Below, piece after piece: positions 3,450-59,944 of a stretch of DNA of 64,000 nucleotides. A program made the position numbers and the translations under genes. The notes under the pieces were generated by a model, which saw only the letters and a program-made list of their open reading frames with translations, ran no database searches and was not told the origin of the DNA. The stretch is from an uncultured Gemmatimonadaceae bacterium (GTDB lineage: Bacteria; Gemmatimonadota; Gemmatimonadetes; Gemmatimonadales; Gemmatimonadaceae). Location of the stretch: positions 448,001 through 512,000 of the forward strand of contig CAWHHI010000020.1 of assembly GCA_963829055.1 (NCBI GenBank), given 5' to 3'. Numbering within the stretch: position 1 is the first letter of the stretch; every line of letters starts with the position of its first letter.

Positions 3450-3464
3450 CCATGAGCCCTTCGG
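3450..3464 (-). promoter_or_regulatory. Degenerate regulon box CCGAAGGGCTCATGG upstream of the GH94 gene
   Basis: Partial consensus match, co-directional with the gene, 20 nt before TACTAG. Confidence 0.4.
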
Positions 3465-3567
3465 CGCGGCCGCGACGCTCGCCGCGCGCCTAACGAGCTC
3501 GACCGGTCGAATCCCTAGGCCCGCTCGTCGCCACGAACGTCCGCCCTCTGCCAGCGGCCTGGGAGAC

Positions 3568-3582
3568 TCGAAGGGCCAATTG
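3568..3582 (+). promoter_or_regulatory. Regulon box TCGAAGGGCCAATTG upstream of SulP
   Basis: The 17-mer CGAAGGGCCAATTGTCC at 3569-3585 is identical to 8288-8304. Confidence 0.6.
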
Positions 3583-3651
3583 TCCAGGCCACGCACAGCC
3601 ACAGCGAACGTGTGAGGGCTCCGATCGAACCACGCATGCAATTGCGCCAAC

Positions 3652-5335
3652 GTGAGTAGATCCGCGCGCCTCCCGATCCTGGACTGGGCCGTCGGGTACC
3701 GGAAGGAATGGCTCCGGCTCGACGTGGTTGCCGGTCTCACCGCCGCGGCGGTCGTCATCCCCAAGGCGCTGGCGTACGCCACGATCGCGGGGCTGCCGGT
3801 GCAGGTGGGGCTCTACACCGCGCTCTTCCCGATGGTGATTTACGCGCTGCTCGGGACTTCGCGCCCGCTCAGCGTGAGCACCACGACGACCCTCGCCATC
3901 CTGGTCGCGGCGAATCTGGCGCGGGTCGCACCCAGACGGTGACGCTCGCCGCTCCTGATCAGACGCGACGGCGACGCTGACGCTGCTCGTGGGCGTCATC
4001 CTCGTTGGTGCTTCCGTTCTGCGGCTGGGATTCGTCGCCGATTTCATCTCCGAGCCCGTGCTCATCGGGTTCAAGGCGGGAATCGGGCTGGTCATCGTGC
4101 TCGACCAGATTCCCAAGCTGCTCGGCGTCCACTTCGACAAAGGCGGGTTTTTCCACAACGTCGTCGAGACCATTCGAGCGATCCCGCATGCCTCGCTGCC
4201 GACGGTCGCGGTGGGAGTCGGCACGATCGTGTTGCTGGTGGGTGCTGCATCGAGTGCTCCCTCGGGCGCCTGCCCCGTTGATCGCGGTCGCCGCGGGGAT
4301 CGCGGCAGTGAGCCTGTTCGGGCTGCGAGCGCTATGGTGTTGCGACGGTCGGCGAGATCCCGCGTGGTCTGCCGTCGTTCATCGCACCGGACTTCTCTCT
4401 TGTCGCCGTGCTCTGGCCCGGGGCCCTTGGCTGCGCGCTCATGAGCTTCACGGAAACGATCGCCGCCGGCCGCGCCTTCGCCGCCAGCCGCCGAACCGCC
4501 GCTCGTGCCTAACAGGGAGCTGGTGGCGACGGGACTCGCGAATGTCGGGAGCGCGGTCTTCGGGAAGCATGCCGGCCGGCGGCGGTACGTCTCAGACCGC
4601 GGTGAACCGATCGGCTGGGGCGCGAACGCAGCTGGCCGAGCTGGTCACCGCTGGTGCCACGTTGCTCACGATGCTGCTGCTTGCCGGACCAATGGGGCTG
4701 ATGCCGCAGGCGACGCTCGCGGCGGTGGTGATCGTGTACTCGATGGGGCTGATCGAGCTGGCCGGCTTTCGCGCCATCCTCGCGATCCGTCGCCTGGAGT
4801 TCATCTGGGCGCTGGTCGCTCTGGCCGGCGTCGTCGTGCTCGGGACGTTGCAGGGTATCGTGGTCGCGATCGTGGTGTCGGTGGTGTCGCTCGCCCAGCA
4901 GGTCGCCAACCCGCCGGTCTACGTGTTGGGCCGCAAGCCAGGCACCAACGTGTTCCGGCCGCGTTCGGCCGAGCACCCGGAAGACGAGAGCTTCCCGGGG
5001 CTGCTGCTGCTCCGAGTGGAAGGACGCGTGTTCTTCCTCAACGCCGCACGGATCGGCGAGAAGATCCGCTCGCTCGTGACCCGAGATGAAGCCGAACGTC
5101 GTGGCGATCGATCTGAGCGGCGTGTTCGATTTCGAGTACACGGCGCTCAAGGCGCTGATCGAAGCGCAGAAGCGGCTCGCGAGGCGATGGCATATCGGTC
5201 TGGCTGGTCGGCCTAACGCCGGCCGTGCTGCGCGTCATCGAGCGCTCGTCACTCGGCGAGCGGCTCGGGCGGGAGCAGATGCACTTCAACCTGGAGATCG
5301 CGGTGCGGAAATATCTGCGCGCCACGCCCGAGTGA
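3652..5335 (+). CDS. SulP family inorganic anion transporter with C-terminal STAS domain (frameshifted)
   Basis: DVVAGLTAAAVVIPKALAYATIAGLP..GLY, FISEPVLIGFKAG, GGTSQTAVN..GARTQ, then STAS segment LRVEGRVFFLNA and VVAIDLSGV. Confidence 0.9.
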
Positions 5336-5347
5336 CGCGAGGCGCGG

Positions 5348-6037
5348 TCACTCCCGCCGCCAGCGCGTATCGTCGCCGCGAGCACCAGCCCAGCACCGAG
5401 CGTGAGCATGACCAGGCCGGCTCCGCCACGGGTGCCTGCCGCCGTGACGGCCCAGGTAGTATCCGCCCGCGAAGCAGCATCAGCAGCGCGATGCCGTTCG
5501 AGACGCGGAGCGCACGATGCGCGTCGTCGATGAAGGCGAACGGGAGCGCCACCGGAAGCGTGGCGAGGAACACCAGCAGAAAGACGCCGAACGCCGCGCG
5601 GAAGTCGCCAGCCGTGAGCCCTGCGCTCGCGGGCAGCGGCAGACCGCTCCAGACGGCCCCGAATGACATCGACCTCCGCCGGCTCCATGGTGGAAGCGAT
5701 CACCGGCGGCAGGGCGTCCGAGAATCAGCTGGCGCGCGCGCGGCCGGGTTGGACCGGCTCCGCACGTCCTTCAGGATCGCCAGGTTGCGGCCCCGTTCGG
5801 TCAGGTGGCCAGCAGGTACATCACCGCGTCCACCAAGCCCCAGGCCGTGTTGCACCCCAGAGCGCCGATCAGCATGCTGCGCACTTCGTTCCGGTCCGCC
5901 GTCGCGACGCTCAGCGTTCCCGTGAACGTGAGCGCCATGATCAGGCCGAAGATGACTCCGGAGACGCGGTCGACCGGGGACAGCGCCGGCGCCGGATCGC
6001 CGCGGCGCTGGCGGGAGCGAGCGAGCGAGATCGTCAC
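5348..6037 (-). CDS. VIT1/CCC1-like membrane protein (frameshifted)
   Basis: DRVSGVIFGLIMALTFTG..LGCNTAWGLVDAVMYL and AFGVFLLVFLATLPVALPF..ALRVSN segments. Confidence 0.7.
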
Positions 6038-6182: not shown

Positions 6183-7171
6183 TCACCCGATGAGGATCGG
6201 GTAGCAGCTCCTTGACCGTGAGCGTGAGTGGAATCGCGAGCAGGGCGCCCATCGGTCCCAGGACGACGCCCCAGCCGAGCAGCGCCAGGACGATGACCAG
6301 CGGCGAGAGTGCCGAGGCCCGCTCCCCATGAGCTTCGGCTTGACCACGTTGTCCCCGATGAAGTTCACGACGAAGAAGAGTCCGAACATGATCAGGGCCA
6401 CGGCTCGACGCCGTACTCCAGCAGCGGTGAGGATGAACGGCGGAATCGCCGAGAGAATGAATCCGAACGGGACGAACGCGAACAGGAAGGCGATCACCGC
6501 CCAGAGCACCGCGGCATCGGTGCCTACCGACCACATGATGACGAGGTCGATGACCGCGATGCACGCGCCGAACATGCCCGTTGAGACCCACGAAGCGTCG
6601 CACCAGCAGTCATGGCGGAGTCGACGCGCGCTCCGGAACGAGCCGGCCGCGACGTCGTCGGACTTGACCAGCGGCAGCTCGACCAGGAACAGCACGACGA
6701 GCACGATCGCGAAGAGCCCGACACCTACGAGGTTGAGCGCTGCGCCCACCAGACCGCCGACCGCCCCATGATCCGCGCCGGGTTCGGCTTGAGCGCCTCG
6801 TTCACCTCGATTCCGCGCGCCGCGAGCTTCTGCGTCACACCATCCACGAGCCCCGAGAGCGAAGCCTGATAGACCGGAAGATTCTCCGACAGGCGACTCA
6901 TCGAGCGCGCGAGCACCATGACCAGGAGCTACTCCGCCGAGCAAGCGGCAGCAACGCCGTGAGCCCGATCGCGGCGCCGCGGCCCATCCCGCGCTTCGTC
7001 AGGCAGACCGGCACCGGAGAAAGCGTCGCCGCGAGCAGCAGCGACAGCAGCACGAGGTTCAGCACCGACGCGGCCGCCTTCATCGCGGCCGCGATGATGG
7101 CGAGGCCTGCCCCAGCACGACCAGCCGGAGCAGCGGCGATCCTCGTTCGAACGGTGATCATTGTGAGACAT
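6183..7171 (-). CDS. AI-2E family transporter (frameshifted)
   Basis: LWAVIAFLFAFVPFG, NFIGDNVVKPKLMG, LSPLVIVLALLGWGVVLGPMGALLAIPLT; ATG at 7171 behind GAGGA. Confidence 0.85.
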
Positions 7172-7178
7172 AGCGTCC

Positions 7179-8021
7179 TCAATACCGCTCGTTCGATGTA
7201 CTTGTAGTGGATAGTCCGGCTCTTTGTAGCCGTGCGCCTTTTGCCGGTCCGGGAGCTTCACCTTCTCGCGTGGCGCGTTCTTGTAGGGAACCTTGCTGAG
7301 CAGGTGCGCGATGATGTTGAGGCGCGCGCGACGCTTGTCGTCCGACAGGGCCACGTACCAGGGCGCGTGCGCCGTATCGGTCGCCGCGAACATCTCGTCG
7401 CGGGCCTTGGAGTAGTCGTACCAGCGGCCGTACGAGTCGAGATCCATGGGCGAGAGCTTCCAGATCTTGCGCCCATCCTCGATGCGGTCCTCGAGCCGGC
7501 GCGTCTGCTCCTCCGGGCTCACCTCGAGCCAGTACTTGAGGAGGATGATGCCCGAATCCACGATGGCCCGCTCGACCAGCGGTACCATGCGCAGGAACTT
7601 CTCGACCTCCTCCTCGCCGGTGAAGCCCATGACGCGCTCGACGCCGGCGCGGTTGTACCAGCTGCGGTCGAAGATCACGACCTCGCCGGCCGCCGGCAGA
7701 TGCTGCACGTAGCGCTGGAGGTACATCTGGCTCTTCTCGCGCTCGGTCGGCGCCGGGAGCGCGACGACGCGGAAGACCCGCGGACTCACGCGCTCGGTGA
7801 TGGCCTTGATGGTGCCGCCCTTGCCGGCGCCGTCGCGGCCTTCGAAGACGACGCAGACCTTGAGTCCCTTGTGCTTCACCCACTCCTGAAGCTTGACCAG
7901 CTCGACGTGCAGTCGATCGAGCTCCTCCTCGTACTCCTTGGCCTTGAGCTTCCCGTTCGGCGCCGCACCGTTTCCTCTCGATCTCGGCATCGCCTTGGCG
8001 CTTCTTGACTTTGACTGTCAC
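7179..8021 (-). CDS. ppk2: Polyphosphate kinase 2, single domain (two apparent frameshifts near the ends)
   Basis: ELVKLQEWV, FEGRDGAGKGG Walker A, FDRSWYNRAGVERVMGF, WKLSPMD. Confidence 0.95.
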   Translation of the reverse strand: MTVKVKKRQGDAEIERKRCGAEREAQGQGVRGGARSTARRAGQASGVGEAQGTQGLRRLRRPRRRRQGRHHQGHHRARESAGLPRRRAPGADRAREEPDVPPALRAASAGGRRGRDLRPQLVQPRRRRARHGLHRRGGGREVPAHGTAGRAGHRGFGHHPPQVLARGEPGGADAPARGPHRGWAQDLEALAHGSRLVRPLVRLLQGPRRDVRGDRYGARALVRGPVGRQASRAPQHHRAPAQQGSLQERATREGEAPGPAKGARLQRAGLSTTSTSNERY

Positions 8022-8133: not shown

Positions 8134-8148
8134 CTATAAGCCCTTCGG
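8134..8148 (-). promoter_or_regulatory. Degenerate regulon box CCGAAGGGCTTATAG upstream of ppk2
   Basis: Partial consensus match; mirrors the 3450-3464 site as the divergent partner of an identical + strand box. Confidence 0.4.
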
Positions 8149-8286
8149 CGTGGGTGCGGAGCGGGAGTCCGCACCGGGTTGTCACCCGGGTTCACCCGCG
8201 CGGAGCCGTTGGCGGCACGTGTCGACGCCGCCACGCACACCGGAGGCCGCTCGAGCGGCACCGGCACACTCGCATCAGCCGGTAAC

Positions 8287-8301
8287 ACGAAGGGCCAATT
8301 G
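8287..8301 (+). promoter_or_regulatory. Regulon box ACGAAGGGCCAATTG upstream of the RND operon
   Basis: Consensus match, 21 nt before GATTGT. Confidence 0.6.
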
Positions 8302-8489: not shown

Positions 8490-11400
8490 ATGGCTGACTT
8501 CTTCATTCGGCGGCCGATCGTCGCGATCGTCATCGCCATCGTCATCACGCTGCTTGGTCTCGCCGTTCTGCAGCGCCTTTCCATCGAGCAGTATCCCGAG
8601 CTGGCGCCACCGAACATTCGGGTGGAAACCACCTACCAGGGTGCCTCCGCCGAGGTGGTGGAGCAGTCGGTCGCCACGCCGATCGAGCAGCAGGTGAACG
8701 GCGTGGACAACATGATCTACATGAAGTCGCTCAACACGAGCGACGGGCGCATGCTGCTCGACATCTCGTTTCAGGTCGGCATGGATCGCGACATGGCGAA
8801 CGTGCTCGCGCAGAATCGCGTGTCGCAGGCCCAGTCCCGGCTGCCGCAGGAAGTGATGCAGCAGGGAGTCACGGTCAAGAAGCTCAACCCCAGCATCCTG
8901 ATGGTGGTCTCGCTCTACTCGCCGAAGGGGAGTCGAGACGCGCAGTTCCTCAATAACTACGCGATGATCAACATGCGGGATGCGCTCCTCCGCGTGCCCG
9001 GGATCGCGCAGGTGGATCTCTACGGCGGCGCCGAATACGGCATGCGCGTCTGGCTCCGTCCCGATCGCCTAACGCGGCTCGGCCTGACGCCAGCGGATGT
9101 CATCGACGCCATCAAGGAGCAGAACCTCCAGGCGCCCGCAGGACAGGTCGGTGCCGCTCCCTCGCCGCCAGGGCAGGAGTTCACCTACACCGTGAAGGCA
9201 CCGGGCCGCCTCGTCACCGCCGAGGAGTTCGACAACATCATCATTCGCCAGACCGCGGGCGGCGGAGAGCTCCGACTCAAGGACGTCGGGCGGGCCGAGC
9301 TTGGAAGCGAGAATTACCGCTCGTTCGGACGCGCGATCGTGAAGGACTCGACCGGCAAGTGGACGGGCGGCGCCGCGGCGTCGCTCCTCGTGTACCTCCT
9401 GCCCGGCGCCAACCAGCTCGCCTCGGCCGAGGGGGTTTACCACTCGCTCGAGGAGTTCGCGACGTTTTTCCCGACCGACGTGGCGTACAAGATCGTGTAC
9501 GACACCACGCCCTCGGTCGAGGCGAGCATCCACGAGATCCTCAAGACGCTCGTCGAGGCATTCATTCTCGTGAGCCTCGTGGTGTTCGTGTTCCTGCAGA
9601 GCTTCCGCGCCACGATCATCCCGCTCCTCACCGTGCCGGTGGCGCTCGTGGGCACGTTCATCTTCTTCCCGCTGCTCGGCTTCTCGATCAACACGCTCAC
9701 GATGTTCGGCCTCGTGCTGGCGATCGGCATCGTGGTGGATGACGCGATCGTGGTCGTGGAAGCGGTGATGCACCACATCGAGCACGGGAAAACACCCAGG
9801 GACGCGACGGTCCAGGCCATGAAAGAGGTGTCCGGGCCGGTGATCGCGATCGCCCTCATTCTCTCGGCGGTGTTCGTGCCGGTGGCGCTGCTTGGCGGCC
9901 TGACGGGCCGGGTGTACCAGCAGTTCGCGCTGACCATCGCCATCTCGGTGCTCCTGTCCGCGTTCCTGGCGCTGAGTCTCGCGCCGGCGCTCGCCGCGAT
10001 GATGCTCAAGCCCGCCAAGCAGACCGGTGGCCTGCTGGGCAAGTTCTATCGCGGGTTCAACAAGATGTTCGATGTGACGACGACCAAGTACGTGAGCTGG
10101 ACGCGCTTGTTCGTCAGGCGAGCGATCCTGGTGGTGGTGGTCCTGGTCGTGGCCACCGGCGTGACGGGTCGTTCTTGGCAGTTCGCTTCCGAAAGGGTTC
10201 GTGCCCGACGAAGACCTGGGCGTCTTCATGATCAACGCCCAGCTGCCGCCCGCGTCATCGAGCGAGCGGACCGACGGCGTCGTCCGGCAGATCGAAGAGG
10301 TGCTGAAGAAGACCGATGGTGTGGTCGCCTGCACCGGCATCGGCGGATCGGGAATCCTCACGAACTCGTTCAGCCCGGAGTTCGCCTCGTTCTTCTGCAG
10401 GCTCGAGGACTGGGACGAGCGGAAGACACCGGCGCTGCACGTCAGCGGGATTACGCAGACGCTGAGACGCTCGCTCGCGGGGATTCCAGGCGCCGTGATC
10501 TTCCCGTTCACTCCACCGACGATCCCGGGGTTCGGCGCGGCCGGTGGCTTCAACTTCCTCCTGCAGGACCGAAGCGGGACGATGAGCGTGCAGGATCTCG
10601 GGAAGCAGACACAGGTCTTCCTGGACGCCGCGCGCAAGCGACCCGAGCTCGCCAACCTGTTCACGTCGTTCAACGCGCAGGTCCCGCAGGTTCAGGTCGA
10701 GCTCGACCGGGAGAAGGCACGCACGTTAGGCGTGCCGATCAACGACGTGTTCGCCGCGCTGTCCGCCGCGATGGGTGGCGCGTACGTGAACGACTTCAAC
10801 CGGTTTGGGCGGCTCTATCGCGTGTACGTGCAGGCAGAGCCCGCGTTCCGTCAGAAGCCCGTGACATCGGGCAGTTCTACGTGCGGAGTCGGACGACGAA
10901 CGAGATGGTGCCGCTCTCCACGCTGATGACGATCACGCCCGGCTCGGGTACGGAGATCACCACCCGGTTCAACCTGTTCCGGTCGGTCGAGATCACCGGG
11001 GTGCAAGCGCCGGGCTACACGTCGGGTCAGGCCATGACGGCGCTCGAGGAGACGGCGACGCAGGTGCTCCCGCGCGAGATGGGGTACGCGTACTCGGGTT
11101 TCTCGTACCAGGAGAAACAGGCGCCGCCAGCGGGACCGACGTTCGTGCTGGCGATCGTCTTCGTCTTCCTGCTGCTCGCGGCGCAGTACGAGAGCTGGAA
11201 GCTCCCGTGGGCGGTGCTGCTGGAGACGCCGCTCGTCGCGTTAGGCGCGTTCTTTGGCGTGTGGGTCGCGGGCTACGACAACAACGTGTTCGTGCAGGTG
11301 GGCCTGATCATGCTGGTGGGGCTCGCCGCCAAGAACGCCATCCTCATCGTGGAGTTCGCAAAGATGCGGCACGAGGCCGGTGCGTCGGTGGAAGAGGCCG

Positions 11401-11715
11401 CACTCGACGCCGCAAAGCTCCGCTTCCGCCCGATCCTCATGACCGCGTTCGCCTTCATCATGGGCGTCGTGCCGCTGATGCTCGCGAGCGGCGCCGGTGC
11501 CGCCGCGCAGAACCGCATGGGCACGGCGGTGTTCTCCGGGATGCTCGTCGCAACGGTCGTTGGCGTGTTCCTCATCCCCGGACTGTTCGCGATGGTCGAG
11601 CGCATGGGGTTCCGGAAGAAGCCACAGCGCGCCGCCGTGCCGCCGGGAGCGGGACTTGGGCGCACCGCCGGCCGCGCCCGTTCCGGCCAGCGCGGCTCCG
11701 CCTGGAGGACACTGA
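8490..11715 (+). CDS. RND efflux permease subunit, AcrB/HAE1 family (frameshifted near 10170, 10860 and 11650)
   Basis: FFIRRPIVAIVIAI, IEQQVNGVDNMIYM, VLAIGIVVDDAIVVVE, GLAAKNAILIVEFA, RFRPILMT. Confidence 0.95.
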
Positions 11716-11716
11716 C

Positions 11717-13112
11717 GTGCACCTAACGACGTCGCGGCGTCGGCGCGGCGCTCCTGCTGACCGTGGTCACGGCGTGCCGCATGGGGCCGAACTACGAGCG
11801 CCCGGAAACCACGCCGGTGCCGACGGCATGGCGGGACAGCGCGCAGGCCGGGCACGACTCGTCGTTCGCGAACGTTCCGTGGTGGGGCGTGTTCAACGAC
11901 GACACGCTGCAGACGCTGATCCGACGCGCGCTCAAGGAAAACCGCGACGTTCACATCGCGCTCGCCCGCGTGAACGAAGCGCGCGCACTGCTCGGGATAC
12001 AACGGCTGGAGTACTACCCGCAGATCAACGTGCAGGCCGGCTTGCGCAAGTCCGACGGTGCCGATTCCCTGCTCACCGGCGTCACCAACAGCGAGATGGC
12101 GTGGCTCGGCGGCGGACTGTCCTGGGAGCTCGATCTGTGGGGACGGTTGCGACGCTTGAACGAAGCGGCGGCCGCCGAGCTTCTGGCGACCGAGGAAGGA
12201 CGCCGCAGCATGATCCTCACCGTGGTGAGCGACGTCGCGCGCGCCTACATGGAGGTGATCGAGCTCGATGACCAGGTGGCCCTCACCGACACGCAGGTGG
12301 TCATCCGGCGCGCATCGCTCGCGCTGGCTCGTGGACGGTTCCAGGGCGGGCTGACGTCCGAGATGGATGTCCGCCAGGGGGAGCTCGCGCTGGCCGTAGC
12401 GGAAGGCAGTCACACCCGGGCGCTCCGACAGCGGGCGCAGAAGGAGAACGAGATCAGCGTGCTGTTGGGCCGCACGCCCGGCGGGGTCCCGCGCGGGTTG
12501 CGGTTGTCCCAGCAGGGCATCCCCACGGCGATCCCGGCCGGCCTGCCGTCGAACCTGCTCACGCGCCGCCCGGACGTTAGGCAGGCGGAGGAGCAGCTGC
12601 GCGCGGCGAACGCCAGGATCGGCGCCGCGAAGGCCGCAATGTTCCCCACGATCGCACTCACGGCGACCGGCGGGACCATCAGCGATGAGCTCGGGTCGCT
12701 GTTCAAGGCGGCACCGGATTCTGGCGCCTCGCACCCAGCCTGTTTCAGCCGATCATCAACACCAGCCGAAACCGCAAGCAGATCGCGGCCGAGCGCGCGC
12801 GCACCGAGGCGGCGGTGGGTCAGTACGAGAAGACGGTGCTGACGGCGTTTCGGGAGGTGGAAGACCAGTTGGTCGCCGTGCAGCGGTTGCGCGAGGAAGC
12901 CGACGCCGCGGGGCGTGCCTCGACGGCGGCGCGACAGGGCGTACGCCTGGCCGGGACTCCGCTATGAAGGCGGCGTTGACAACTACCTGACACTGCTGGA
13001 CGCCCAGCGGGCACAGCTCGACGCCGACCTGCAGTCGTCCGGACTGGAGCGACAGTACCGCGTGGCCGTCGTGCAGCTGTACAAGGCGTTAGGCGGTGGG
13101 TGGGACCCGTGA
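11717..13112 (+). CDS. RND outer-membrane factor lipoprotein, NodT/OprM family (frameshifted)
   Basis: Lipobox VVTAC-RMGPNYERP, WWGVFND..L, SWELDLWG, LLTRRPDVRQAE, LYKALGGGW. Confidence 0.92.
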
Positions 13113-13184
13113 CCGACACGCTGGCACTGCCCAACCGCGGCCACGACCGGCACGGCTGTCAGCACCTAACGTCACGGTCGGTCG

Positions 13185-13214
13185 CGGGGCGCGCGAAGAC
13201 GGTCGCGCGCCCCG
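13185..13214 (+). terminator. GC-rich hairpin after the RND-OMF operon
   Basis: CGGGGCGCGCGA / TCGCGCGCCCCG 12-bp perfect stem with a 6-nt loop; no U-tract. Confidence 0.45.
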
Positions 13215-13327
13215 TGCCCGGCACGCCCGACTACACCTTGGTCCCGTAGCCGGGGCATGTCGCCGCTCCCATCGTTGCCTCCGGAGACCGCGCTGTCGCG
13301 GCAATGACTTCCATCCGGGGCAAACCG

Positions 13328-14528
13328 ATGAGTCGCCTTTTGAAACCCGTCTTCGTCACCGTCGTGCTGCTTGCGAGCGTGCAGTCGATCGCGACGGCAC
13401 AAAGCGGATCGCAGTCGACGATCAACGTCTACGGGTTCGTGATGCTCGATGCCGGCTACAACTTCAACCAGATCAATCCCAACTGGTACGGACGTGGTAC
13501 GGCCCACCAAGCTGCCCTCGTTCAAGGACCAGTACGCGCCGGACGGCAACATGTTCTTCGGCGTCCGTCAGACGAGGCTCGGCGTCAAGGGGAACGTGCC
13601 GACGCCGATCGGTGAGCTCAAGACCACGTTCGAGTTCGAGCTGTTCGGCACGGGCGTCGACGAGGGACAGACGACGTTCCGGCTCCGGCACGCCTACGGA
13701 GAGTTGGGCAAATTCGGCGCCGGCCAGACGTGGAGTCCGTTCATGGACATCGACGTCTTTCCCAACTCGCTCGAGTACTGGGGCCCCACCGGGATGGTGT
13801 TCTTCCGCAACCTCCAGGTGCGGTGGATGCCCATCCAGGGCGATACCCGCATGACGATCGCGCTCGAGCGGCCGGGAGCCAGTGCCGACCAGGGCACGTA
13901 CGCCGGCCGCATCGAGCTGCAGGATGTGAAGCCGAGGTTCCCATACCCCGATCTCTCGGCGGAATACCACCTGGGCAGGAAGTGGGGATACGTCGAGCTG
14001 GCGGGGATGGTTCGGCGCATCGAGTGGGAGGACCAGGGCACTGACGCGTTCGACCTCTCCGGCAACGCCACGGGCTGGGGCCTGAACCTGAGCTCCAACC
14101 TGAACCTGGGCAAGAGCAGCGTCGCGCGGCTCCAGGCGATGTACGGCGAAGGCGTCGAGAACTACATGAACGACGCGCCGGCGGACATCGGGATCGAGAA
14201 CCAGCCCGGCAACCCGGTCGCGCCGATCAAGGGCGTCGCGCTTCCGGTGACCGGCGTCGTCGCGTTTCTCGACCACACGTGGAACACCAAGTTCACCACG
14301 GCCATCGGGTATTCGATGGTGGACATCGACAACAGCGCGCAGCAGTCGGCCGACGCGTTCAGCAAGGCGCAGTACGCGTTAGGCAACCTCCTCTACAGCC
14401 CGACGCCGGGGGTGACCGCTGGAGTGGAGTTCCAGTGGGGGAACCGGGACAACTTCTCCGACGGCTTCACGTCGGACATCCGCAAGGTCCAGTTCTCGTT
14501 CAAGTACGCGTTCGCCAAGACCTACTGA
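13328..14528 (+). CDS. DcaP-like trimeric outer-membrane channel (one frameshift near 13490)
   Basis: Signal peptide, IYGFVMLD-type start, FGVRQTRLG, RLRHAYGELG..AGQTWSPFMD, C-terminal VQFSFKYAF. Confidence 0.85.
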
Positions 14529-14559
14529 AGACCTACTGAAGACCACTGAAGACCAACTG
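14517..14559. repeat. Four tandem 10-11 bp copies of AAGACC(T/A)ACTG spanning the dcaP-like stop codon
   Basis: aagacctactg aagacctactg aagaccactg aagaccaactg. Confidence 0.85.
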
Positions 14560-14571
14560 AGGCTGCGAGCC

Positions 14572-15624
14572 ATGCATCGGATTCATCGCGAACTGTTCAC
14601 GCTGGCGCTCACGGCCGCCGGGGCCACAGCCATCCTGGCATCTCCGGTGCGGGCACAGAGCGCCAAGACCACCGGTCAGGACCAGGCCATCGTGACGGCC
14701 CTGAACGAGACGTACGCAAAGTTCAAGAACCTGCAGGAAGGCAAGAACGCCGATTACATCCCGGCGCTCGCCAAGGTCGATCCCAAAATCTTCGGCATCG
14801 CGCTGATCACCACGGATGGAAAGGTCTACACCGCCGGCGACATCAAATCGGAAGTCTCGATCCAGTCGATCTCGAAGGTGTTCACGATGGCCAAGGTCAT
14901 GGAGGAACAGGGACCTGAAGTCATCGAGAAGACCGTCGGGGTCGACGCCACCGGCATGCGCTTCAACTCGATCGTGTCGGTCGAGTTCTCGCAGAAGGCG
15001 CTCGGCGGCCCGGAGATGAACTCGCTCGTCAACCCGGGCGCCATCGCCACGACGTCGATGGTCAAGGGCAGCACCCGGGATGCGGTGTGGAACAGCATCC
15101 TCGGGTTCTACTCGGACTTCGCGGGCAGGCCGCTCTCCGTGAATCAGGAAGTGTTCAAGTCCGAAGCGGAGACCAATCAGCGCAACCAGGCCATCGGTGC
15201 CCTGATGTACGCCTACGGGTACATCAAGGCGAAGCCGGCCCAGGCGACCGACATCTACACCGAGCAGTGTTCGGTAAACGTCAACGCCAGGGACCTCGCG
15301 ATGATGGCCGCGACGCTCGCCGCCGGAGGCAAGAATCCGGCGACCGGCAAGCAGGTGATGGCGGCGAAGAACGTACCGTACGTGCTGGCGGTCATGGCCA
15401 CGGCGGGGTTGTACGACGATTCCGGCAAGTGGCTCTATCACACGGGCCTGCCCGCCAAGAGCGGCGTTGGTGGCGGGATCATCGCGGTGGCGCCGGGCAA
15501 GTTCGGGATCGCCGTCATCTCCCCGCCGCTCGATGACGCCGGGAACAGCGTCCGCGCGCAGCGCGCCATCAGAGAGATCGTGGCACGGCTGCATGCCAAC
15601 CCCTACGAGGTGGCAGCGCGGTAG
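14572..15624 (+). CDS. glsA: Glutaminase A with predicted Sec signal peptide
   Basis: GKNADYIPALA, IQSISKVF catalytic SxxK, VNPGAIAT, TAGLYDDSG, GLPAKSGVGGGI; N-terminus ending VRA-Q. Confidence 0.95.
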   Translation: MHRIHRELFTLALTAAGATAILASPVRAQSAKTTGQDQAIVTALNETYAKFKNLQEGKNADYIPALAKVDPKIFGIALITTDGKVYTAGDIKSEVSIQSISKVFTMAKVMEEQGPEVIEKTVGVDATGMRFNSIVSVEFSQKALGGPEMNSLVNPGAIATTSMVKGSTRDAVWNSILGFYSDFAGRPLSVNQEVFKSEAETNQRNQAIGALMYAYGYIKAKPAQATDIYTEQCSVNVNARDLAMMAATLAAGGKNPATGKQVMAAKNVPYVLAVMATAGLYDDSGKWLYHTGLPAKSGVGGGIIAVAPGKFGIAVISPPLDDAGNSVRAQRAIREIVARLHANPYEVAAR

Positions 15625-15744
15625 CGCACCCGTCCGATGGGGGAGGGTACGGCGTCTCCCCTCACTGCCTAACGCCGGTGATGACTGCGTGGGGTGCCTG
15701 ACGCACCGTATGCCGGCTCGTTGCCTACCCTCACGGAGTTACCG

Positions 15745-17107
15745 ATGCCCTTGACGCGTCCTGCGGCCACGAGCTCGTGCCTGGCCGTCACCCTCGCGCG
15801 GCCATTGCTGATACTCGCGGCGTTCCTGGTCGCGATCCCGCCCGCGCGGCTCGCGGCCCAGGAGGACCCGGGACGAAGCGCCGCGGATACGGCTACCGCC
15901 AAGGATACGATGTACACGTCCAGCATCGGGGGAGAGTTCCGTCCCGCCAAAGGCTTCGACCTCGTCCGGACGAAACGGTCCAGTCTGAACATCAGCTTTT
16001 ACGGGCTGTTCCGGTATATGAATCAGACTCCGGGCAGCCAGACATTCACGGACCACCTGGGCCGGGAGCGCACCGTCAAGGCCCGCCAGGACCTGAACTG
16101 GCATCGCACGTTCGTGTGGCTCACCGGTTTCTTTTGGGTTCCAAAGTTCCGGTACAACATCTCGCTCTGGTCACTGCCGACGACGCAGCAGACGCTGCTC
16201 TTCGGGAACCTCCAGTATTTCTTCCAGTCCCGCGTTCAACCTTGGCGTCGGGATCACGCCCAATCTCACCAGCCGCTCGGTACAAGGCTCATGGCCGTTC
16301 TGGGGGTCGAGCGACCGACAGATGGCGGACGATTTCTTCCGCGGCGGGTTCTCGTCCGGCATCTTCGCCACGGGGCTGGCGCTCCCGCGGCTCAACTACA
16401 CCGTCTCGGTGAACACCAACATCAGCCAGCTCGGCACGACCGCGGCAAATGACTCGCGCGACTTTGCCTACAGCGGGAGCCTGGTCTGGAGGCCGACGAC
16501 CGGAGAGTTCGGTCCGCGCGGCGGATTGGGTGACTTCGAATATCATAAGACGCTGGCCACCCAGTTCGGCATTTCGGCCGGCCACAGTCGCGAGTCCCGC
16601 TACGCGAACGACAGCGCGCCGCCTAACGCGACACAGATCAAGCTCTCCGACGGCGTCAACCCGTTCGAAGAGAACGCGCTGGCCCAGGGCGTGACGGTGC
16701 AGAAGCTCGATTACGATGAGATGGCCGTCGACGCGGGACTCAAGCTCCGCGGCTTCTCGCTCCAGAGCGAGTACTACTGGCGCCGGCTGTCCAACTTCCA
16801 GACCATCGGCGGCCCGGTCCCGATGAATTCCATCTTCGATCACGGATTCCAGGTGCAGGCGATGCAAATGGTCGTCCCGACGAAGCTCGGCCTCTACGCG
16901 GTGTACGGGAAGGTGTTCGACGACTTCAAGCGGAATCCCTACGAGATATCGGGCGGCGCCAACTTCTACCCGTCGGGAACGCGCAGTTGGCGACTCAACC
17001 TGCACCTGATCAACGTGAAGCGGAGCCCGGCGGCCTCGAACTTCGGGTTCTACACATCAGGGCAGACCGGCACGACCATATCGGCGGGAATCGATATCCT
17101 CATGTGA
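15745..17107 (+). CDS. Hypothetical exported outer-membrane beta-barrel protein (frameshift near 16225)
   Basis: Signal peptide ending LAA-Q, amphipathic aromatic-rich strands, terminal AGIDILM. Confidence 0.7.
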
Positions 17108-17195
17108 CGGAACGCTCACCGCGTATCGCCGTGCCTAACGAGCATGCAGGGACGCGTGCCGTCGACTGTTGGTAACCCGTTCAGGCGAACGATCA

Positions 17196-18867: not shown

Positions 18868-18874
18868 GCATTGG

Positions 18875-18889
18875 TCCAAGGTCCACTGG
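18875..18889 (+). promoter_or_regulatory. Regulon box TCCAAGGTCCACTGG
   Basis: Consensus match, 21 nt before CATGAT, 74 bp before the ATG at 18963. Confidence 0.6.
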
Positions 18890-20304: not shown

Positions 20305-21204
<900 letters not shown>

Positions 21205-22602: not shown

Positions 22603-22673
22603 GGCCGCCAGCTCACGGCCGACAGGGCGGCGGCGGTCACGCCGCGCCTGCCGGCACGCGCTCGTGGGTAGCC

Positions 22674-23762
<1,089 letters not shown>

Positions 23763-24070: not shown

Positions 24071-24082
24071 CGGGCGTCCGCC

Positions 24083-25513: not shown

Positions 25514-25514
25514 T

Positions 25515-43903: not shown

Positions 43904-43918
43904 CTATTGCACCTTCGG
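43904..43918 (-). promoter_or_regulatory. Regulon box CCGAAGGTGCAATAG
   Basis: Consensus match, 20 nt before CATGCT. Confidence 0.7.
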
Positions 43919-43997
43919 GTCATGCGTCAGCGCCTTGCCCGAGATGGCTCGCATCGCCGTCGTGCTGTTTCCCGCCGTGCACCGGCGGTCGGCGGCG

Positions 43998-44450: not shown

Positions 44451-44465
44451 CAATTGGACTATGGA
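44451..44465 (-). promoter_or_regulatory. Regulon box TCCATAGTCCAATTG
   Basis: Consensus match, 20 nt before TACCAT. Confidence 0.7.
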
Positions 44466-44536
44466 TGGAACAGGGCGACGCCGCCGCCGTAGCTTCCATC
44501 TGCGGGCCGCGCCGGAGGCCTACGCCAGCGCGGCTC

Positions 44537-46428: not shown

Positions 46429-46443
46429 CCATTGCACCTTCGT
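46429..46443 (-). promoter_or_regulatory. Regulon box ACGAAGGTGCAATGG
   Basis: Consensus match, 20 nt before AATCAT. Confidence 0.7.
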
Positions 46444-46559
46444 GCATCGACCGGTTCGCGAAGTTGACCGCCCCTGGGACCGCGGACGGCACCCTGAAGG
46501 CGACCTCCGCCCTCGACTTCGCGGCGAGACACGCGACCCGAAGGTCGTGCCATTGATCT

Positions 46560-46878: not shown

Positions 46879-46893
46879 CCATTGTACCTTCGG
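46879..46893 (-). promoter_or_regulatory. Regulon box CCGAAGGTACAATGG
   Basis: Consensus match, 21 nt before TACCCT. Confidence 0.7.
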
Positions 46894-46944
46894 GCAATCC
46901 ACGGGATGCCCACGATGGTCGGCGAGGCGCGTTAGGTGAGTTGG

Positions 46945-46959
46945 GCCAAGGTGCACTAG
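46945..46959 (+). promoter_or_regulatory. Regulon box GCCAAGGTGCACTAG
   Basis: Consensus-like, 19 nt before CAACGT. Confidence 0.55.
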
Positions 46960-49874: not shown

Positions 49875-49889
49875 CCATTGCACCTTCGC
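49875..49889 (-). promoter_or_regulatory. Regulon box GCGAAGGTGCAATGG
   Basis: Consensus match, 20 nt before AATCGT. Confidence 0.7.
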
Positions 49890-49906
49890 CCAGATCAGAT
49901 CCCAGA

Positions 49907-54731: not shown

Positions 54732-54746
54732 CGATAGCACCTTAGG
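54732..54746 (-). promoter_or_regulatory. Regulon box CCTAAGGTGCTATCG
   Basis: Consensus-like, 21 nt before TACCAT. Confidence 0.55.
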
Positions 54747-54932
54747 GATACGCGAACCAACGGCTCGGCTATACGAAACCGCTGCCGGATTTGCGGACTC
54801 CGCGAAATCGTTCCCACGCCCCGCTTCCGTCGCACCGCGACGACTTGGAGGTTTTCGCCAGGGTCGATCGACGATCAGGCCTGTATCAGGGCTCGCCAGC
54901 GGATGGTGGCGAGCGTTGTATTCTGAATTGTT

Positions 54933-54947
54933 ACCAAAGGCCAATGT
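54933..54947 (+). promoter_or_regulatory. Regulon box ACCAAAGGCCAATGT upstream of the FixJ-like regulator
   Basis: Consensus match, 19 nt before TAGACT. Confidence 0.65.
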
Positions 54948-55017: not shown

Positions 55018-55740
55018 ATGGAGCAGGATCGGATGACTCTCATGCAAACGCAGAGTGAAGGCGAGGACGGGTTCGCCTACTGCGCTGACGATTTCACCAG
55101 GTCTGTCAGGTCGGAGGCGACGCGGCGGCCGACCGTCTACGTAGTGGACGACGACGATTCGATGTTGACGGGACTCGCCAGTCTGCTCGGCGCGGCCGGG
55201 TATCGCGTCGAGGCCTTCAACTCGGCTCTCGACTTCCTGGCCGTTCCGAGGAGAAGGCCGGCGTGCCTGGTGCTCGACCAGTTGATGCCGGAGCTCACCG
55301 GCGCCGACGTCTACCGACACCTTCTGCTCGACCCCGATCCCCTCCCCGTCGTCTTTCTCTCCGGCAGCGGCGACGTCGCCGCGGCGGTCGATGTCATGAA
55401 GGCCGGCGCCATCGACTTTCTGCGCAAGCCGGTCGATGGCGAGGAGCTGTTGGCCGCGGTCGGGCGCGCAGTCGCACGCGACCGCGCCGCAGAGGCTGAC
55501 CGCCTCGAAAGGGATCGGCTCCAGGGACGCCTCGCCCGGCTCACTGTTCGGGAGCAGGAAGTTCTTCACGAAGTCGTGCAGGGACGACTCAACAAGCAGG
55601 TGGGCGCGCGCCTGGGGATCACGGAGCGCACGGTGAAGCGCCACCGCGGAATGGTCATGCACAAGCTCGGCGTGGACTCCGTTGCGGAACTGGTGCGATT
55701 CGCCGACCGCATCGTCGAAGGCGAAGGCGCTCGCGCGTAG
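55018..55740 (+). CDS. FixJ/NodW-like response regulator (receiver + LuxR HTH)
   Basis: VYVVDDD, CLVLD, MKAGAIDFLRKP, LTVREQEVL..GRLNKQV..LGITERTVKRHR..VMHKL. Confidence 0.93.
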   Translation: MEQDRMTLMQTQSEGEDGFAYCADDFTRSVRSEATRRPTVYVVDDDDSMLTGLASLLGAAGYRVEAFNSALDFLAVPRRRPACLVLDQLMPELTGADVYRHLLLDPDPLPVVFLSGSGDVAAAVDVMKAGAIDFLRKPVDGEELLAAVGRAVARDRAAEADRLERDRLQGRLARLTVREQEVLHEVVQGRLNKQVGARLGITERTVKRHRGMVMHKLGVDSVAELVRFADRIVEGEGARA

Positions 55741-56319: not shown

Positions 56320-58919
56320 TCAGAAGCGAACTGGCGACCTGGGAGCGGGCAGAAGCGAGGGCTCCCCGGACGGTATACGCCTGTCGTCGTGGCGTTCCTG
56401 CGGGGAAGCGGCAGATTCCTTGGCGATCACGAATGCGACTCGCGCTCCGCCACCCGGCAGGTTCTCCGCCCAGATCCGGCCGCCGTGTGATTCCACGATC
56501 ATCCGGCAGATCGACAGGCCCATCCCGATGCCATCGGGCTTCGAGGTAACGAATGGCTCGAAGACCGACTCGAGCTGATCGGACGCGATCCCGCCGCCGG
56601 TGTCGGCGACTCCCACGATCACGCCGCCGCCTGGCTCAGCCTCGACCGACACGCGCACCTGTCGCTCCGGCGCATTCGTCGCCACGATGCTGTCGAATGC
56701 GTTGAGCACGAGGTTCACGACCACCTGCTCGATCTGGACGCGGTCACCCCACACCGATGGAACCTCTGCGCTCGCTGAATGGATCAGCTTGATGCGGCGA
56801 CGTACCGCATCGCCACTCAACAGCGCGGCGATACCGGCAACGAGATCGTCGAGGCGGAATTCGGCGAGATCGGTCGGCTGCTTGCGAAGGAGTCGCCGCA
56901 AGCGGTCGATGATGGTGTTTGCACGCCGCACGTCATTGGCGACCATCTCGAGCATCCGCGTGACCTCGTGCATTTCGGGGGCGCTTCCGGCTCCGGCCGC
57001 GCCGCCCGCGAGCCACCGCTGAGCGGCCTGCACGGACAGGAGGATGGCGCCCAGCGGCTGGTTGATCTCGTGGGCGAGCGACGCTGACAGCTCGCCGACG
57101 ATACCGACGCGAGCCATGTGGGACAGCTCTTCACGGCGCTGCGTCACCTCGAGCTCGGTACGACGCCTGATGATGGAGTTCGTGAGCACGAGGCAGAGGA
57201 GGTGGAGTCCGTCGACGATCCAGGCATCCCACGAGCGCTCGTGGCGCACGACGGCAACCACGAGGACGCCGACGCAGCGGCCGCCGGCCATCATCGGGAG
57301 GCCCACCACCGACTTCACCCCGCGCTCAACGTAGCCAGCTCGGTCGCCAACCAGGTCGTCGGGCATTGACGACATCGAAGAGATCTCGACTGGCTCGCCG
57401 CGCCGCAGCCTGGCCCACGTGGCGGGAAGCCCGGCAGGGCCCAGAGCTTGTGCGGGGCCGACACCGGGTGCGGCCCAGCGATGGAGGATGCGGAGCGAAT
57501 CCGTCGACTCGTCCAGCATGGCCAGCATTGCCCGGTCGACCCCGACGAACTCCGCGGCTTGAGCGAGAATTTCCTCCGCGACGTCGTCGAGCTGCGCCCC
57601 GGTCGCGGCGACCAGCTTGGCGGAGAGTCGCAGCAGCAGCAGCTCCAACTGCCGCTGAGTCTCGCCCGCTTGCTCGGCTACGCGGCGCCGGCGGAACTGG
57701 CGCAGGAGCGCGACAATGAGCGTCGTCTGCACCGCGATCACGGCGAGTATGATGAGCAGTGGCCGTCGATACTGCACCCACGGGGACGCGACCTTGTCGA
57801 TGACACGGCTCCCTGGTGGCAGACGCGCAGGATCGAGACCGAAACGTTGCATCGTCGGCCAGTCGAACTGGTAGGACGCGGTGCCTCGCAGGTCGATGGG
57901 AGTCGCCGACGGCGGAACGCCAGCGAGCACCGCCTGAGCCATGGTGGCGGCACGCTGCCCCCAGCACGGCGAAGTCGAGTACCGCGCCACCGACGATCCC
58001 GCGCCCCAGGTGCGTGGCCGACACGCCGTATATGGGTACGCTCGTGGCCCGGACGAGCTGTTCGAGTGCCAGCACCGTCACGAAGCGAGTGCCGTCCGCA
58101 TCAGTATCCATCGACGCGAAGAGCACGACAGAGCCGCTACGAAGTGATGCGGCACGACGCAGCACGCTGGGGAAGTTCAAAGGGCTTGTGTACTCGATTT
58201 GAAGCCGACCTTCGTAGCTTCGCAGCTGTTCACGCACCAATTGCTCGATGCCGTGTTCGAAGTCACTGGTGCCAATGACCACGAGAACGTGTTTCGTCTG
58301 AGGCTCCAGTTTGACCACAGCATCCAGCGTAGCTGCCGCATCGACGCGGATGGCAACACCCGTCACGCGGCCGGATCTGAATGCCGCCAGCGAGCTCCGC
58401 CTCGTTGGAGGAGAGCAAGATGACGGGTACGTCGCCGACGAGCTCGCCGGCGGAGAGCTTCTGGACCACGCTGTGGGGAAGTCCGGCGCCGATCACGAGG
58501 TCGGGGCGCTGGACAGCGTACTTTTTCCGGATGTATTGGTAGGTCAACTGGCTCGCGGAGTTACCCTCGGCACCTGTGAGGCCCAGGTGTTCCTCGAACA
58601 GCTCGACGCGGCGGCTGCTGTCCGCCCCCAGTCGCTGGCGAATGACTTGGTCGAGGAGCGCGACAGCGGGCTGCTGGGTCGCCTCCTCGAAGAGGAGCAG
58701 GACGCGGCGGTTCGTTCGTGTCGCTTTCGCGTCCGCCGAGGTCGTCGGGTTACGCGAGGGTGCGTTTTTCGCCGCGGCCGGTGTCTGTGACAAGGCTGCC
58801 GGCGGCATTCCCATCGCCAGCAGTGCGACCAGTGCGATCACAGAGAGCATGAGGGGAACGCTCGAACCGAGGCCCGTCCCGATTGGACGCGCCTCTGGCT
58901 CGCTGATCCAGAGCCTCAC
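56320..58919 (-). CDS. Membrane sensor histidine kinase with periplasmic substrate-binding-like domain, GAF and FixL-like kinase core (frameshifted)
   Basis: Periplasmic region, TM LLIILAVIAVQTTLIVALL, GAF, SLAHEINQPL H-box, GDRVQIEQVVVNL, FEPFVTSKPDGIGMGL. Confidence 0.9.
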
Positions 58920-59044
58920 GTTATGCGAGGAGGTGCGGCCGAACGAACGACCGGTTAGTGGTCGTCGTCATTGAATGCTCCTCGGGAATGGACACGTCGC
59001 GACCGAACACACGAGACCATCCTCGCCTGCCCAGTCGCAACCCG

Positions 59045-59059
59045 CCATTGGACCTTCGG
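59045..59059 (-). promoter_or_regulatory. Regulon box CCGAAGGTCCAATGG (exact consensus) upstream of the sensor kinase
   Basis: 20 nt before GAGGAT. Confidence 0.7.
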
Positions 59060-59096
59060 CACGGGGGTCCCCCGTGCTCGTTACTTCGAGTTCGAC

Positions 59097-59855
59097 CTAC
59101 TTCGCGGAATAGCCCTTCCCGTCCAGACAGGTGGTGAAGCCGTCAGCGAACTTCTTCTTGCTCTGATCGGCTGCCGCCGCCGCTTGCGCCTGCGCGTCGT
59201 TCGCGGCGGCCTGATTGTTCGCCTTCTGGTTTCGGCGGCCGGCCACTCCACCCGCGGCGGCGCCGATCGCGGCCCCCTTGCCAGCGTCGCCGGCGATCGC
59301 ACCGATCGCCACGCCAGCCACGGCCCCTTTCGCCGCGCCCTTGGCTGCCCCGCCCTGCGCAGGGGGCGGCGCGGTTGCTGCACCCACCGGTGCGTACGGG
59401 TCGATTCCCGTGTTCGTCTTCGCCCACACGAAGCACTCGTTCTCGTCGAAGTGCTGCTGCTCGATCGGCTGTCCGTTCTTCGGGTACACGACGACGCCAA
59501 TCGCCGACCCGGACGCCTTGGGATCGAACGGAGGATAGGTCTTCGGGGGCGGCGGCGGGGGCGCACTCGCCGGTTCCGCGGCGGCGGGCTTGGCCGCTGC
59601 CGGCTTCGCAGCTGCTGCCTTCGTAGCTGCCGGCTGCGCTGCCTCGGGGCTTGCGACGGTCCCGGCGGAGACCATGGTCGCCGTGTCGCCTGCCGGCACC
59701 GTGGTCGCCGCTGGTGCGGCCGTGTCAGTGAGCGTGGCGCCGGCGGACGCGTCCGATCTCCCCTTGCACGCGGACAGCGATAGAGCCGTAAGCGCGAACG
59801 TGCACGTTACGACGACGATGTGCGCCGCACGGGGCGCGAATGGTCGGGTGCTCAT
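59097..59855 (-). CDS. Glycine-zipper lipoprotein with Ala/Pro-rich linker, copy 2
   Basis: LSAC lipobox, (AAAKP)n linker, YPKNGQ..CFVWA, same zipper and CLDGKGYSAK end as 54049-54600. Confidence 0.85.
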   Translation of the reverse strand: MSTRPFAPRAAHIVVVTCTFALTALSLSACKGRSDASAGATLTDTAAPAATTVPAGDTATMVSAGTVASPEAAQPAATKAAAAKPAAAKPAAAEPASAPPPPPPKTYPPFDPKASGSAIGVVVYPKNGQPIEQQHFDENECFVWAKTNTGIDPYAPVGAATAPPPAQGGAAKGAAKGAVAGVAIGAIAGDAGKGAAIGAAAGGVAGRRNQKANNQAAANDAQAQAAAAADQSKKKFADGFTTCLDGKGYSAK

Positions 59856-59929
59856 GTTCCCCTTCCCTGGTGACGGAACGCCGGCCGAGGGCCAGCCATC
59901 ATCAGCCTAGGAGGGCGCACGCGCGAGGG

Positions 59930-59944
59930 ACATTGGCCGTTGGT
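59930..59944 (-). promoter_or_regulatory. Regulon box ACCAACGGCCAATGT
   Basis: Consensus-like, 20 nt before TAGGCT. Confidence 0.55.

Follow-up and report, generated by a model that had tools for sequence, protein, structure and literature searches.

The 64,000-nucleotide stretch of DNA analysed here (the window; C20:448001-512000 of G000, a 7.78-Mb Gemmatimonadaceae-like genome) carries repeated copies of a 15-bp box in front of its genes, which the initial annotation had listed as at least 22 intergenic copies, each pointing toward the adjacent downstream gene, and had read as the mark of a single regulon under one activator. All 22 copies are present at the listed coordinates and strands and, with the gene starts in the window curated by hand (intergenic share, 13%), 22/22 are intergenic and 22/22 are oriented toward the next gene, even if several of them fall inside maximal extensions or shadow entries of the automatic list of open reading frames (ORFs). 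A manual count placed a strong box before about 21 of the 27 transcription units, in agreement with the claim that most units are preceded by one. No box was found before the LysR-LysR/PAS-kinase pair (50381-54030) or before the 60180 REC-kinase unit.

With up to 3 mismatches to the consensus, the window yields 15 matches against 1.52 expected, a number reached by 0 of 100 shuffles. A matrix built on the 22 sites gives, at 16 bits or more, 19 matches in the window and 30 in the remaining 7.72 Mb of the genome (0.25 per 64 kb), and in a leave-one-out test 20/22 sites score at least 13.6 bits. The NAnnnT hexamer, which had been noticed 19 to 21 nt downstream of most copies, occurs there in 20/22 cases, against 0 to 5 in eight other 3-nt windows, and the stricter TAnnnT in 8/22, against 0 to 2. 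The degenerate pattern CSAWRGKVCAMTKK was uninformative, with control counts as large as the real ones. The boxes and the main genes of the window are as follows ("matrix" marks boxes so recorded).

3450..3470, minus: weak box before GH94 gene (10.3 bits)
3562..3582, plus: box, 21-mer including left arm, before split SulP transporter gene (matrix)
8134..8154, minus: weak box before ppk2/AI-2E unit (11.2 bits; 13.4 with 21-mer matrix)
8281..8301, plus: box before RND-OEP-DcaP-glutaminase-porin-aspT unit (matrix)
18869..18889, plus: box, left arm near-complete, before 404-aa gene without Pfam family
20394..20414, plus: box before split MIP channel gene (matrix)
27147..27167, minus: box before aspartase-DASS-asparaginase-porin O/P unit (matrix)
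28975..28995, minus: box before DUF1254/DUF1214 gene (matrix)
32140..32160, minus: box before amidohydrolase-MscS unit (matrix)
33381..33401, minus: divergent-pair box before secreted-type gene without Pfam family (matrix)
33467..33487, plus: divergent-pair box before DUF4136 unit (matrix)
36270..36290, plus: box before second DUF1254/DUF1214 gene (matrix)
37938..37958, plus: distal box before DUF3300-DUF2950, without phased -10
38045..38065, plus: proximal box before DUF3300-DUF2950 (matrix)
43904..43924, minus: box before DUF2092-DUF6515-MscS unit (matrix)
44451..44471, minus: box before small secreted-type gene (matrix)
46429..46449, minus: box before 46290 gene and bestrophin-like gene (matrix)
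46879..46899, minus: divergent-pair box (matrix)
46939..46959, plus: divergent-pair box (matrix)
49875..49895, minus: box before outer-membrane beta-barrel gene (matrix)
54732..54752, minus: weakest of the 22, before glycine-zipper gene (leave-one-out 7.4 bits; TACCAT at 21 nt)
54927..54947, plus: box before FixJ/StyR-like regulator 55018 (matrix)
59045..59065, minus: consensus box before split periplasmic-sensor GAF histidine kinase gene
59930..59950, minus: box before glycine-zipper gene (matrix)
6929..7990, minus: ppk2, polyphosphate kinase 2 (TIGR03707 above cut-off)
8490..18867, plus: RND pump, outer-membrane factor, DcaP porin, glutaminase A, porin-like genes and aspT (one gene, two frames)
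21326..26947, minus: aspartate ammonia-lyase, DASS transporter, type II asparaginase (split), porin O/P (split)
38180..40677, plus: DUF3300 and DUF2950, island marker pair
55018..55740, plus: FixJ/StyR-like response regulator, helix ITERTVKRHRGMVM, one of three in the island
56320..58919, minus: histidine kinase, periplasmic sensor and GAF; full-length homologue of box-adjoining kinases in Sinorhizobium, Ensifer and Verrucomicrobiota
60180..63400, plus: REC protein and GAF-GAF-PAS histidine kinase (split), without box

The two weak copies (3450 and 8134) are both on the minus strand and score 10 to 11 bits. An explanation of the copies as remnants of promoter duplication or of a small repeat, devoid of a regulatory role, is scarcely credible: a few upstream regions are indeed paralogous (8287 resembles C20:416360 and 430459, and 33473 resembles C20:403852), but the sequences flanking most copies are unrelated, the information content is limited to the box and the -10 position, and the box is conserved across phyla before both orthologous and non-orthologous genes. 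An RNA or repeat element was ruled out as the identity of the box, with no Rfam or tRNA match in the window. As to the gene models, a single ORF at 50381-52702 (minus strand, no box) holds two complete LysR units in tandem, either a true fusion or the product of a lost stop, and genes split by frameshift are found at 3652-5216, 17169-18867, 20392-21207, 21326-23753, 52503-54030, 56320-58919, and 60448-63400.

Shape of the element and known counterparts

The conserved element is a 20-bp inverted repeat, CATWGGACYAARGTCCWATK, and the 15-mer is its right-hand part. The description as a 15-bp directional box therefore holds with regard to the oriented, conserved copies and falls short with regard to the element itself, a longer pseudo-palindrome whose right arm doubles as the -35. 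When the hexamer is taken as -12 to -7, the dyad centre lies at -43.5 +/-1, relative to start sites that are predicted and not mapped, and motif columns 13 to 15 (T, K, K) fall on -35 to -33. The left arm is decayed in the window, with T at position -3 in 11/22 copies (p=4e-4); in the Verrucomicrobiota sites the columns 5' of the 15-mer are conserved even though the matrix does not score them (T in 69/84 at -3 and G in 68/84 at 0). The same sites put the axis between columns 4 and 5, and a 6-2-6 palindrome reading of the 15-mer was accordingly rejected. Positions C2 and G7 are invariant. It is likely that the right arm has been retained, and that the box appears directional, because columns 13 to 15 also serve as -35 to -33.

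We could thus recognize the features of a NarL/FixJ-family class II site, namely, a dyad of 18 to 20 bp (with its left arm decayed in this genome), a centre at -42 to -44 overlapping the -35, as judged from the spacing to the -10-like hexamer, and a linked REC-GerE regulator with its kinase. The proposal of a class II activator site overlapping the -35 is supported by the hexamer spacing, and the box is likely a site of this family, with an EL222/DosR-type core. Strict orientation, fixed spacing to a -10-like hexamer, and a weak left arm in this genome would also suit the extended -35 of an alternative sigma factor of the extracytoplasmic function (ECF) type, with no activator site. However, dyad symmetry is full in the Verrucomicrobiota sites, which is more than a sigma domain would require, the hexamer that follows is of the sigma-70 type, the boxes are linked to FixJ-like genes, and no sigma gene occurs among the annotated island ORFs, which makes the ECF explanation very unlikely.

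Different from the initial annotation, which had recognized no described box, we found that the core fits both the EL222 consensus and the DosR core. In the available parts of the respective papers, the EL222 consensus is given as RGNCYWWRGNCY (PMC10521638), and activation is described from a site overlapping the -35 (PMC5001607). The fit reaches 9.6 of 10 informative positions for 29 sites of the Verrucomicrobiota genome G061 and 8.0 of 10 in the window. EL222, the LOV-HTH protein of Erythrobacter litoralis, shares with the present system a near-identical recognition helix, the 12-bp core, and sigma-70 activation from an overlapping -35 position; it differs in its LOV input, against a receiver domain with kinases, and in the flanks, which here extend to a 20-bp repeat. 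The island regulators are all REC-GerE proteins, and no LOV-HTH regulator was found among them.

For DosR/DevR of Mycobacterium tuberculosis, the excerpts available report a consensus that includes the box core (PMC2275270), proximal Dev boxes that end 33 to 34 nt from the start and contain an essential C7 (PMC3177182), and the DNA-contact residues K179, K182, and N183 (PMC5999986). The likeness concerns the 12-bp core with its invariant C, the distance to the start, a clustered survival regulon of about 50 genes, and boxes before the regulator's own genes. However, only the core of the DosR box TTSGGGACTWWAGTCCCSAA fits, while the flanks do not (9.1 and 11.6 of 20), and the sites here are single instead of tandem, with no score peak 12 to 70 bp upstream in 35 and 29 sites, a search in which very poor sites would be missed. 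Moreover, the regulator is FixJ/StyR-like (helix EKTVKVHR), keeping both lysines and replacing the Asn183 with a Val, and the cargo consists of decarboxylases, deaminases, and proteins of the envelope; the annotated island ORFs include no universal stress protein.

These similarities could also mean that the box is read by a DosR/NarL- or LOV-type regulator encoded elsewhere, the FixJ-like genes of the island being only targets. The core equals the DosR core GGACTWWAGTCC (PMC2275270, in part), C2/G7 correspond to the essential C7 of the Dev boxes, with an identical distance to the start of 33 to 34 (PMC3177182, in part), and 3 of the 38 GerE matches of the genome have a DosR-like KTVRNH helix. 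Nevertheless, the KTVRNH genes lie far from the boxes, the box goes with the FixJ-like regulator both inside the genus and among Verrucomicrobiota, the DosR flanks fit poorly (3, 0, and 0 of 29 at columns 17 to 19), and tandem secondary sites were not seen; a regulator encoded elsewhere is thus improbable.

The FixLJ-FixK system of rhizobia resembles the present one in its FixJ-family regulator, in the FixL-like PAS of the G061 kinase, and in the decarboxylase-ppk2-DUF3300 cargo of pSymA. However, the FixJ equivalog scores are 208, 190, and 174, below the cut-off of 255, the FixJ helix is ISPRTVEVHR, the published FixJ sites GTAGTTTCCC and TAAGTAATTTCCCTTA do not match, and here the cargo itself carries the box, 1 FNR/FixK- or lxa-type site being present in 127 kb (up to 1 mismatch; TTGAT-N4-ATCAA or TGA-N6-TCA), inside a gene. 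Among full-length proteins of solved structure, StyR is closest to 55018 (E 1.8e-42); it differs in its helix, IAEVTVKVHR; StyR and TodT act on catabolic single-operon targets through AT-rich boxes. The right arm of the box loosely resembles CSNAATWT, an old element that the available text places at -33 in fixK promoters (PMC4999443). In Burkholderia cenocepacia, the 50-gene lxa island is described, in the part of the source available, as sharing a promoter motif at 17 intergenic points (PMC3721108); this motif, TGA-N6-TCA and FNR-like, was discarded as the identity of the box. A literature search outside most subscription journals and outside RegPrecise, PRODORIC, and CollecTF gave no description of the box or the regulon, and the core strings led to a DosR probe and unrelated primers. 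The cross-phylum regulon is thus apparently undescribed, the mechanism of a class II NarL/FixJ dimer itself being well known.

Island, candidate regulator, and occurrence in other genomes

The box cluster extends about 63 kb to the left of the window, up to C20:385705, and delimits an island of about 125 kb (C20:385-512 kb), with no tRNA or GC step at its ends. A 21-mer matrix, partly trained on these sites, places 33 of its 49 genome matches within the island, where the phased hexamer accompanies 29/33 matches, against 6/16 outside. The idea of one regulon is sustained by the spacing and by the conservation of the box with a regulator gene, and its size has to be revised to about twice the window: as predicted from sequence, the natural regulon is made of about 35 promoters in one island. 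Outside the island, strong boxes occur at C6:132255 (26 bits, before a MASE4 kinase gene), C4:208665 (22 bits, before a receiver-like gene), and C18:63658 (20 bits).

A second matrix, derived from 61 Verrucomicrobiota sites but seeded by the window matrix and thus only partly independent, places 14 of its 19 G000 matches in C20:385-512 kb, against 0.08 expected. Its top match, C20:392392 (27 bits), precedes a REC-GerE gene, behind which a MASE1-PAS kinase is encoded, and the orthologous sites in G001, G002, and G005 reach 30 to 31 bits. The initial annotation had pointed to 55018 as the regulator; this gene at C20:392.6-393.3 kb, outside the window, is a better candidate, 55018 being a box-preceded paralogue. 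The DNA-binding domain of the C20:392.6-393.3 kb regulator aligns to StyR, FixJ, and EL222, and its helix, TSEKTVKVHRSRVM, is closest, and nearly equal, to that of EL222, LSEKTVKMHRGLVM. The helices of the other island paralogues are ERTVKRHR (55018) and EQTVKVHR (C20:403.9-404.8 kb), and the box-associated regulators share the helix E[KR]T[VI]KxHR. We slightly favour the C20:392.6-393.3 kb gene as the master regulator; it is doubtful that the three paralogues share the site or act as heterodimers, and unlikely that 55018 alone holds this role. RNA contigs of two soil studies span the master regulator gene and, since they include the box itself, are uninformative on start site or expression.

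In a table of 30 loci chosen by protein likeness alone, a box lies no more than 2 kb from 8/10 regulators with an E[KR]T helix and from 2/12 of the EIT type (p=0.008), the remaining 8 rows (EGT, EHT, EQT, and LKT) giving 3/8. In this genome, EIT-type regulators lie among copies of a variant box, and such paralogues would read the variant GATACCAWCGTGYAAT. A sister box, GATACCAWCGTGYAATRG, lies around FixJ-like regulators with an EIT/QIT-type helix, among epoxide hydrolase genes, in 6 of its 11 exact genome matches (sister-box positions in G000, C20:365423, 369730, 375135, and 377386; C12:32140 and 38131), and similar sites occur beside EIT-type regulators in G314, G318, G354, G053, and G359.

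The DUF2950 loci most similar to that of the window are labelled Gemmatimonadales/Gemmatimonadaceae. Exact copies of CSAARGTCCAATGK number 7, 8, 8, 6, and 6 in G000, G001, G002, G005, and G006 and 0 in G003 and G004 (controls, 0 to 1); the 4/6 same-genus genomes with the box are exactly those carrying DUF2950, and the regulator gene follows the same split. All 80 DUF2950 loci were scanned with the window matrix, with the expectation taken from permuted matrices: the 31 Verrucomicrobiota loci gave 84 box matches against 10.75 expected, and the 2 loci outside Verrucomicrobiota, Acidobacteriota, and Gemmatimonadales gave 0.

In G061, 16 of the 20 exact matches fall on C22:76-189 kb, a 113-kb island (control, 0), and 22 of its 29 strong sites have NAnnnT at 19 to 21 nt. 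Of the 99 called proteins of this island, 26 match the G000 island, and the common cargo includes DUF3300/2950, DUF1254/1214, Ppk2, SulP, MIP, asparaginase, AspT, decarboxylase, bestrophin-like, FGE-type, and efflux genes. AspD is additional in G061, where a box heads a decarboxylase-aspT-aspD operon, as are a carbonic anhydrase, a cation exchanger, a K channel, a phospholipase D-type synthase, and a desaturase; at C22:72-194 kb (L122-L128), sulfatases, FGE-type proteins, and DUF3604 are abundant under boxes. Among 151 sampled Verrucomicrobiota genomes, 9 are pattern-positive and 9 encode the regulator, which, with the seed excluded and kin not independent, occurs in 4/8 pattern-positive and 4/142 negative genomes. 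In G124, G172, and G163, boxes directly follow the kinase-regulator operon. The pattern matches of G158, G176, and G149 resemble plain TTGACA-type promoters in genomes lacking the regulator and were not counted. Finally, oriented boxes precede the DUF3300 and arylsulfatase genes that neighbour a related kinase-regulator pair on pSymA of Sinorhizobium meliloti and on a plasmid of Ensifer; this mini-version (L140:10191, minus, and 13325-13345, plus; L145:26362, plus) adjoins a kinase-regulator-REC operon with the helix TSERTVKAHR.

Cargo, predicted programme, and trigger

The island encodes an ornithine decarboxylase and PotE, both above the NCBIfam cut-offs, and two arginine-decarboxylase-like proteins that remain below cut-off (partial or split queries). 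Ammonia-releasing enzymes (glutaminase A, type II asparaginase, and aspartase) are accompanied by transporters and channels (DASS, SulP, aspT, MIP, two MscS, and bestrophin-like), by envelope functions (RND with adaptor and outer-membrane factor, DcaP and other porins, TamB/Omp85, and glycine-zipper proteins), and by ppk2 and DUF3300/2950/1254/1214/2092/4136/481. Signalling is represented by several MASE1/PAS/GAF kinases, lone receivers, and three FixJ/StyR-like regulators. aspT is one split gene, and no aspD was found among the annotated island ORFs. Among the units that begin with a box are the decarboxylase-PotE operon (box at C20:417777), glutaminase-aspT (8287), and aspartase-asparaginase (27147).

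Taken together, the sequences suggest that the box, as the conserved part of a 20-bp repeat, is quite probably bound by an island FixJ/StyR-like dimer that would co-induce a predicted low-oxygen/acid programme. A dimer of the response regulator would bind the inverted repeat about 43 bases before the predicted start and recruit sigma-70 polymerase from a position overlapping the -35, with positive feedback through the boxes of the regulator and kinase genes. Likeness to EL222 and DosR makes the binding of the box by the regulator likely. Ornithine/arginine decarboxylases with PotE, and AspT, would sustain membrane potential and proton consumption, glutaminase, asparaginase, and aspartase would release ammonia, Ppk2 would regenerate nucleoside triphosphates (NTPs), and the envelope would be remodelled.

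Several observations weigh against this explanation. The strongest site of this genome, C20:392392, lacks a phased hexamer, which is present at the G001 orthologue, and the regulator gene is frameshifted in this assembly and intact in G001; two of its surplus letters are missing in 4/4 related public runs, which points to assembly indels. The EIT-type regulators form one clade, so that the helix contrast amounts to about one event, and a larger table (19/27 vs 5/19) takes in loci selected by their box. In 201 Gemmatimonadota genomes, the strict pattern stays near the control level outside this genus (14/201). There is little enrichment in the 37 Acidobacteriota DUF2950 loci (20 matches vs 12.5 expected) and in the 10 of other Gemmatimonadales (3 vs 1.8), and of 11 loci scanned, those of Caballeronia and Cupriavidus and two of Rhizobium/Sinorhizobium have no boxes. 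Since cargo loci of other lineages thus show little or no box enrichment, cargo and box are separable. Lastly, the master kinase is a MASE1-PAS protein with no match to haem-type PAS.

Proton-consuming decarboxylation-antiport, the release of ammonia, and the regeneration of NTPs are of use for survival in acid as well as in anoxia. As to the trigger, we tentatively point to low oxygen or energy shortage, rated slightly above acid, itself a tentative choice, on the basis of S. meliloti FixJ/FNR data, the silence of the main text of an acid-shift paper, and the His of the G061 PAS; some other signal is rather unlikely. In S. meliloti 1021, pSymA 345-390 kb encodes homologues of the decarboxylase (79%), the antiporter (78%), Ppk2 (61%), and DUF3300/2950. 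This block has six FNR/FixK-like sites and lacks a strong copy of the box. The first two homologues are presumably SMa0680/0682, the record being unannotated. In the portions of the sources available, SMa0680/0682 are described as FixJ activated (PMC13327599) and, in a tolC mutant, as induced together with the fix genes (PMC2912261), and DUF3300/2950 as induced in symbiosis transcriptomes (PMC4653623). The G061 kinase carries a FixL/DosP-like PAS with His. Just right of the window, a kinase gene without an oriented box (L005:2338-5236; C20:514.3-517.2 kb) encodes a FixL-like PAS with the proximal His (E 7e-19).

The functions of the boxed decarboxylase-PotE, glutaminase-aspT, and aspartase-asparaginase operons are textbook acid resistance, and G061 adds ion and lipid genes. 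It is hence possible to hypothesize that the same regulator controls a pure acid-resistance island, comparable to the acid-fitness island of enteric bacteria, low pH being sensed via membrane MASE1 or periplasmic sensors; such a reading departs from the main one in its trigger alone. However, the S. meliloti homologues carry FNR/FixK-like boxes and are reported as FixJ activated, and the acid-shift study of S. meliloti mentions, in its main text, neither an SMa06xx/SMa09xx gene nor a decarboxylase and finds pSymA under-represented (PMC2651895), so that we regard a purely acid-directed island as doubtful.

The combined programme would provide the DUF3300/DUF2950/DUF1254/1214/DUF2092/Ppk2/AspT/decarboxylase block with a regulator, an operator, and a probable role under stress, and would connect the optogenetic EL222 operator and the DosR core with a natural clade of FixJ-like regulators. 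To our knowledge, few regulons have been described for these abundant, mostly uncultured soil phyla. A more speculative possibility is that of a portable, self-wired survival island of at least 100 kb in soil Gemmatimonadota, Verrucomicrobiota, and some Acidobacteriota, with a mini-form on rhizobial megaplasmids, in which FixL-like and other kinases would signal to a FixJ-like activator reading EL222/DosR-type operators directly on cargo that rhizobia run via FixK, and in which K/R versus I in the helix would set the box variant. The link to EL222 and DosR would yield a helix-to-box rule open to testing, as well as inducible promoters ready for use, and the small pSymA version would allow tests in S. 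meliloti. Between the two boxed halves of the island, at C20:430-448 kb (L004), lies a sugar-storage block with few boxes, comprising MGH1-like hydrolase, phosphoketolase, isoamylase, phosphorylase, GH94, and glucoamylase genes.

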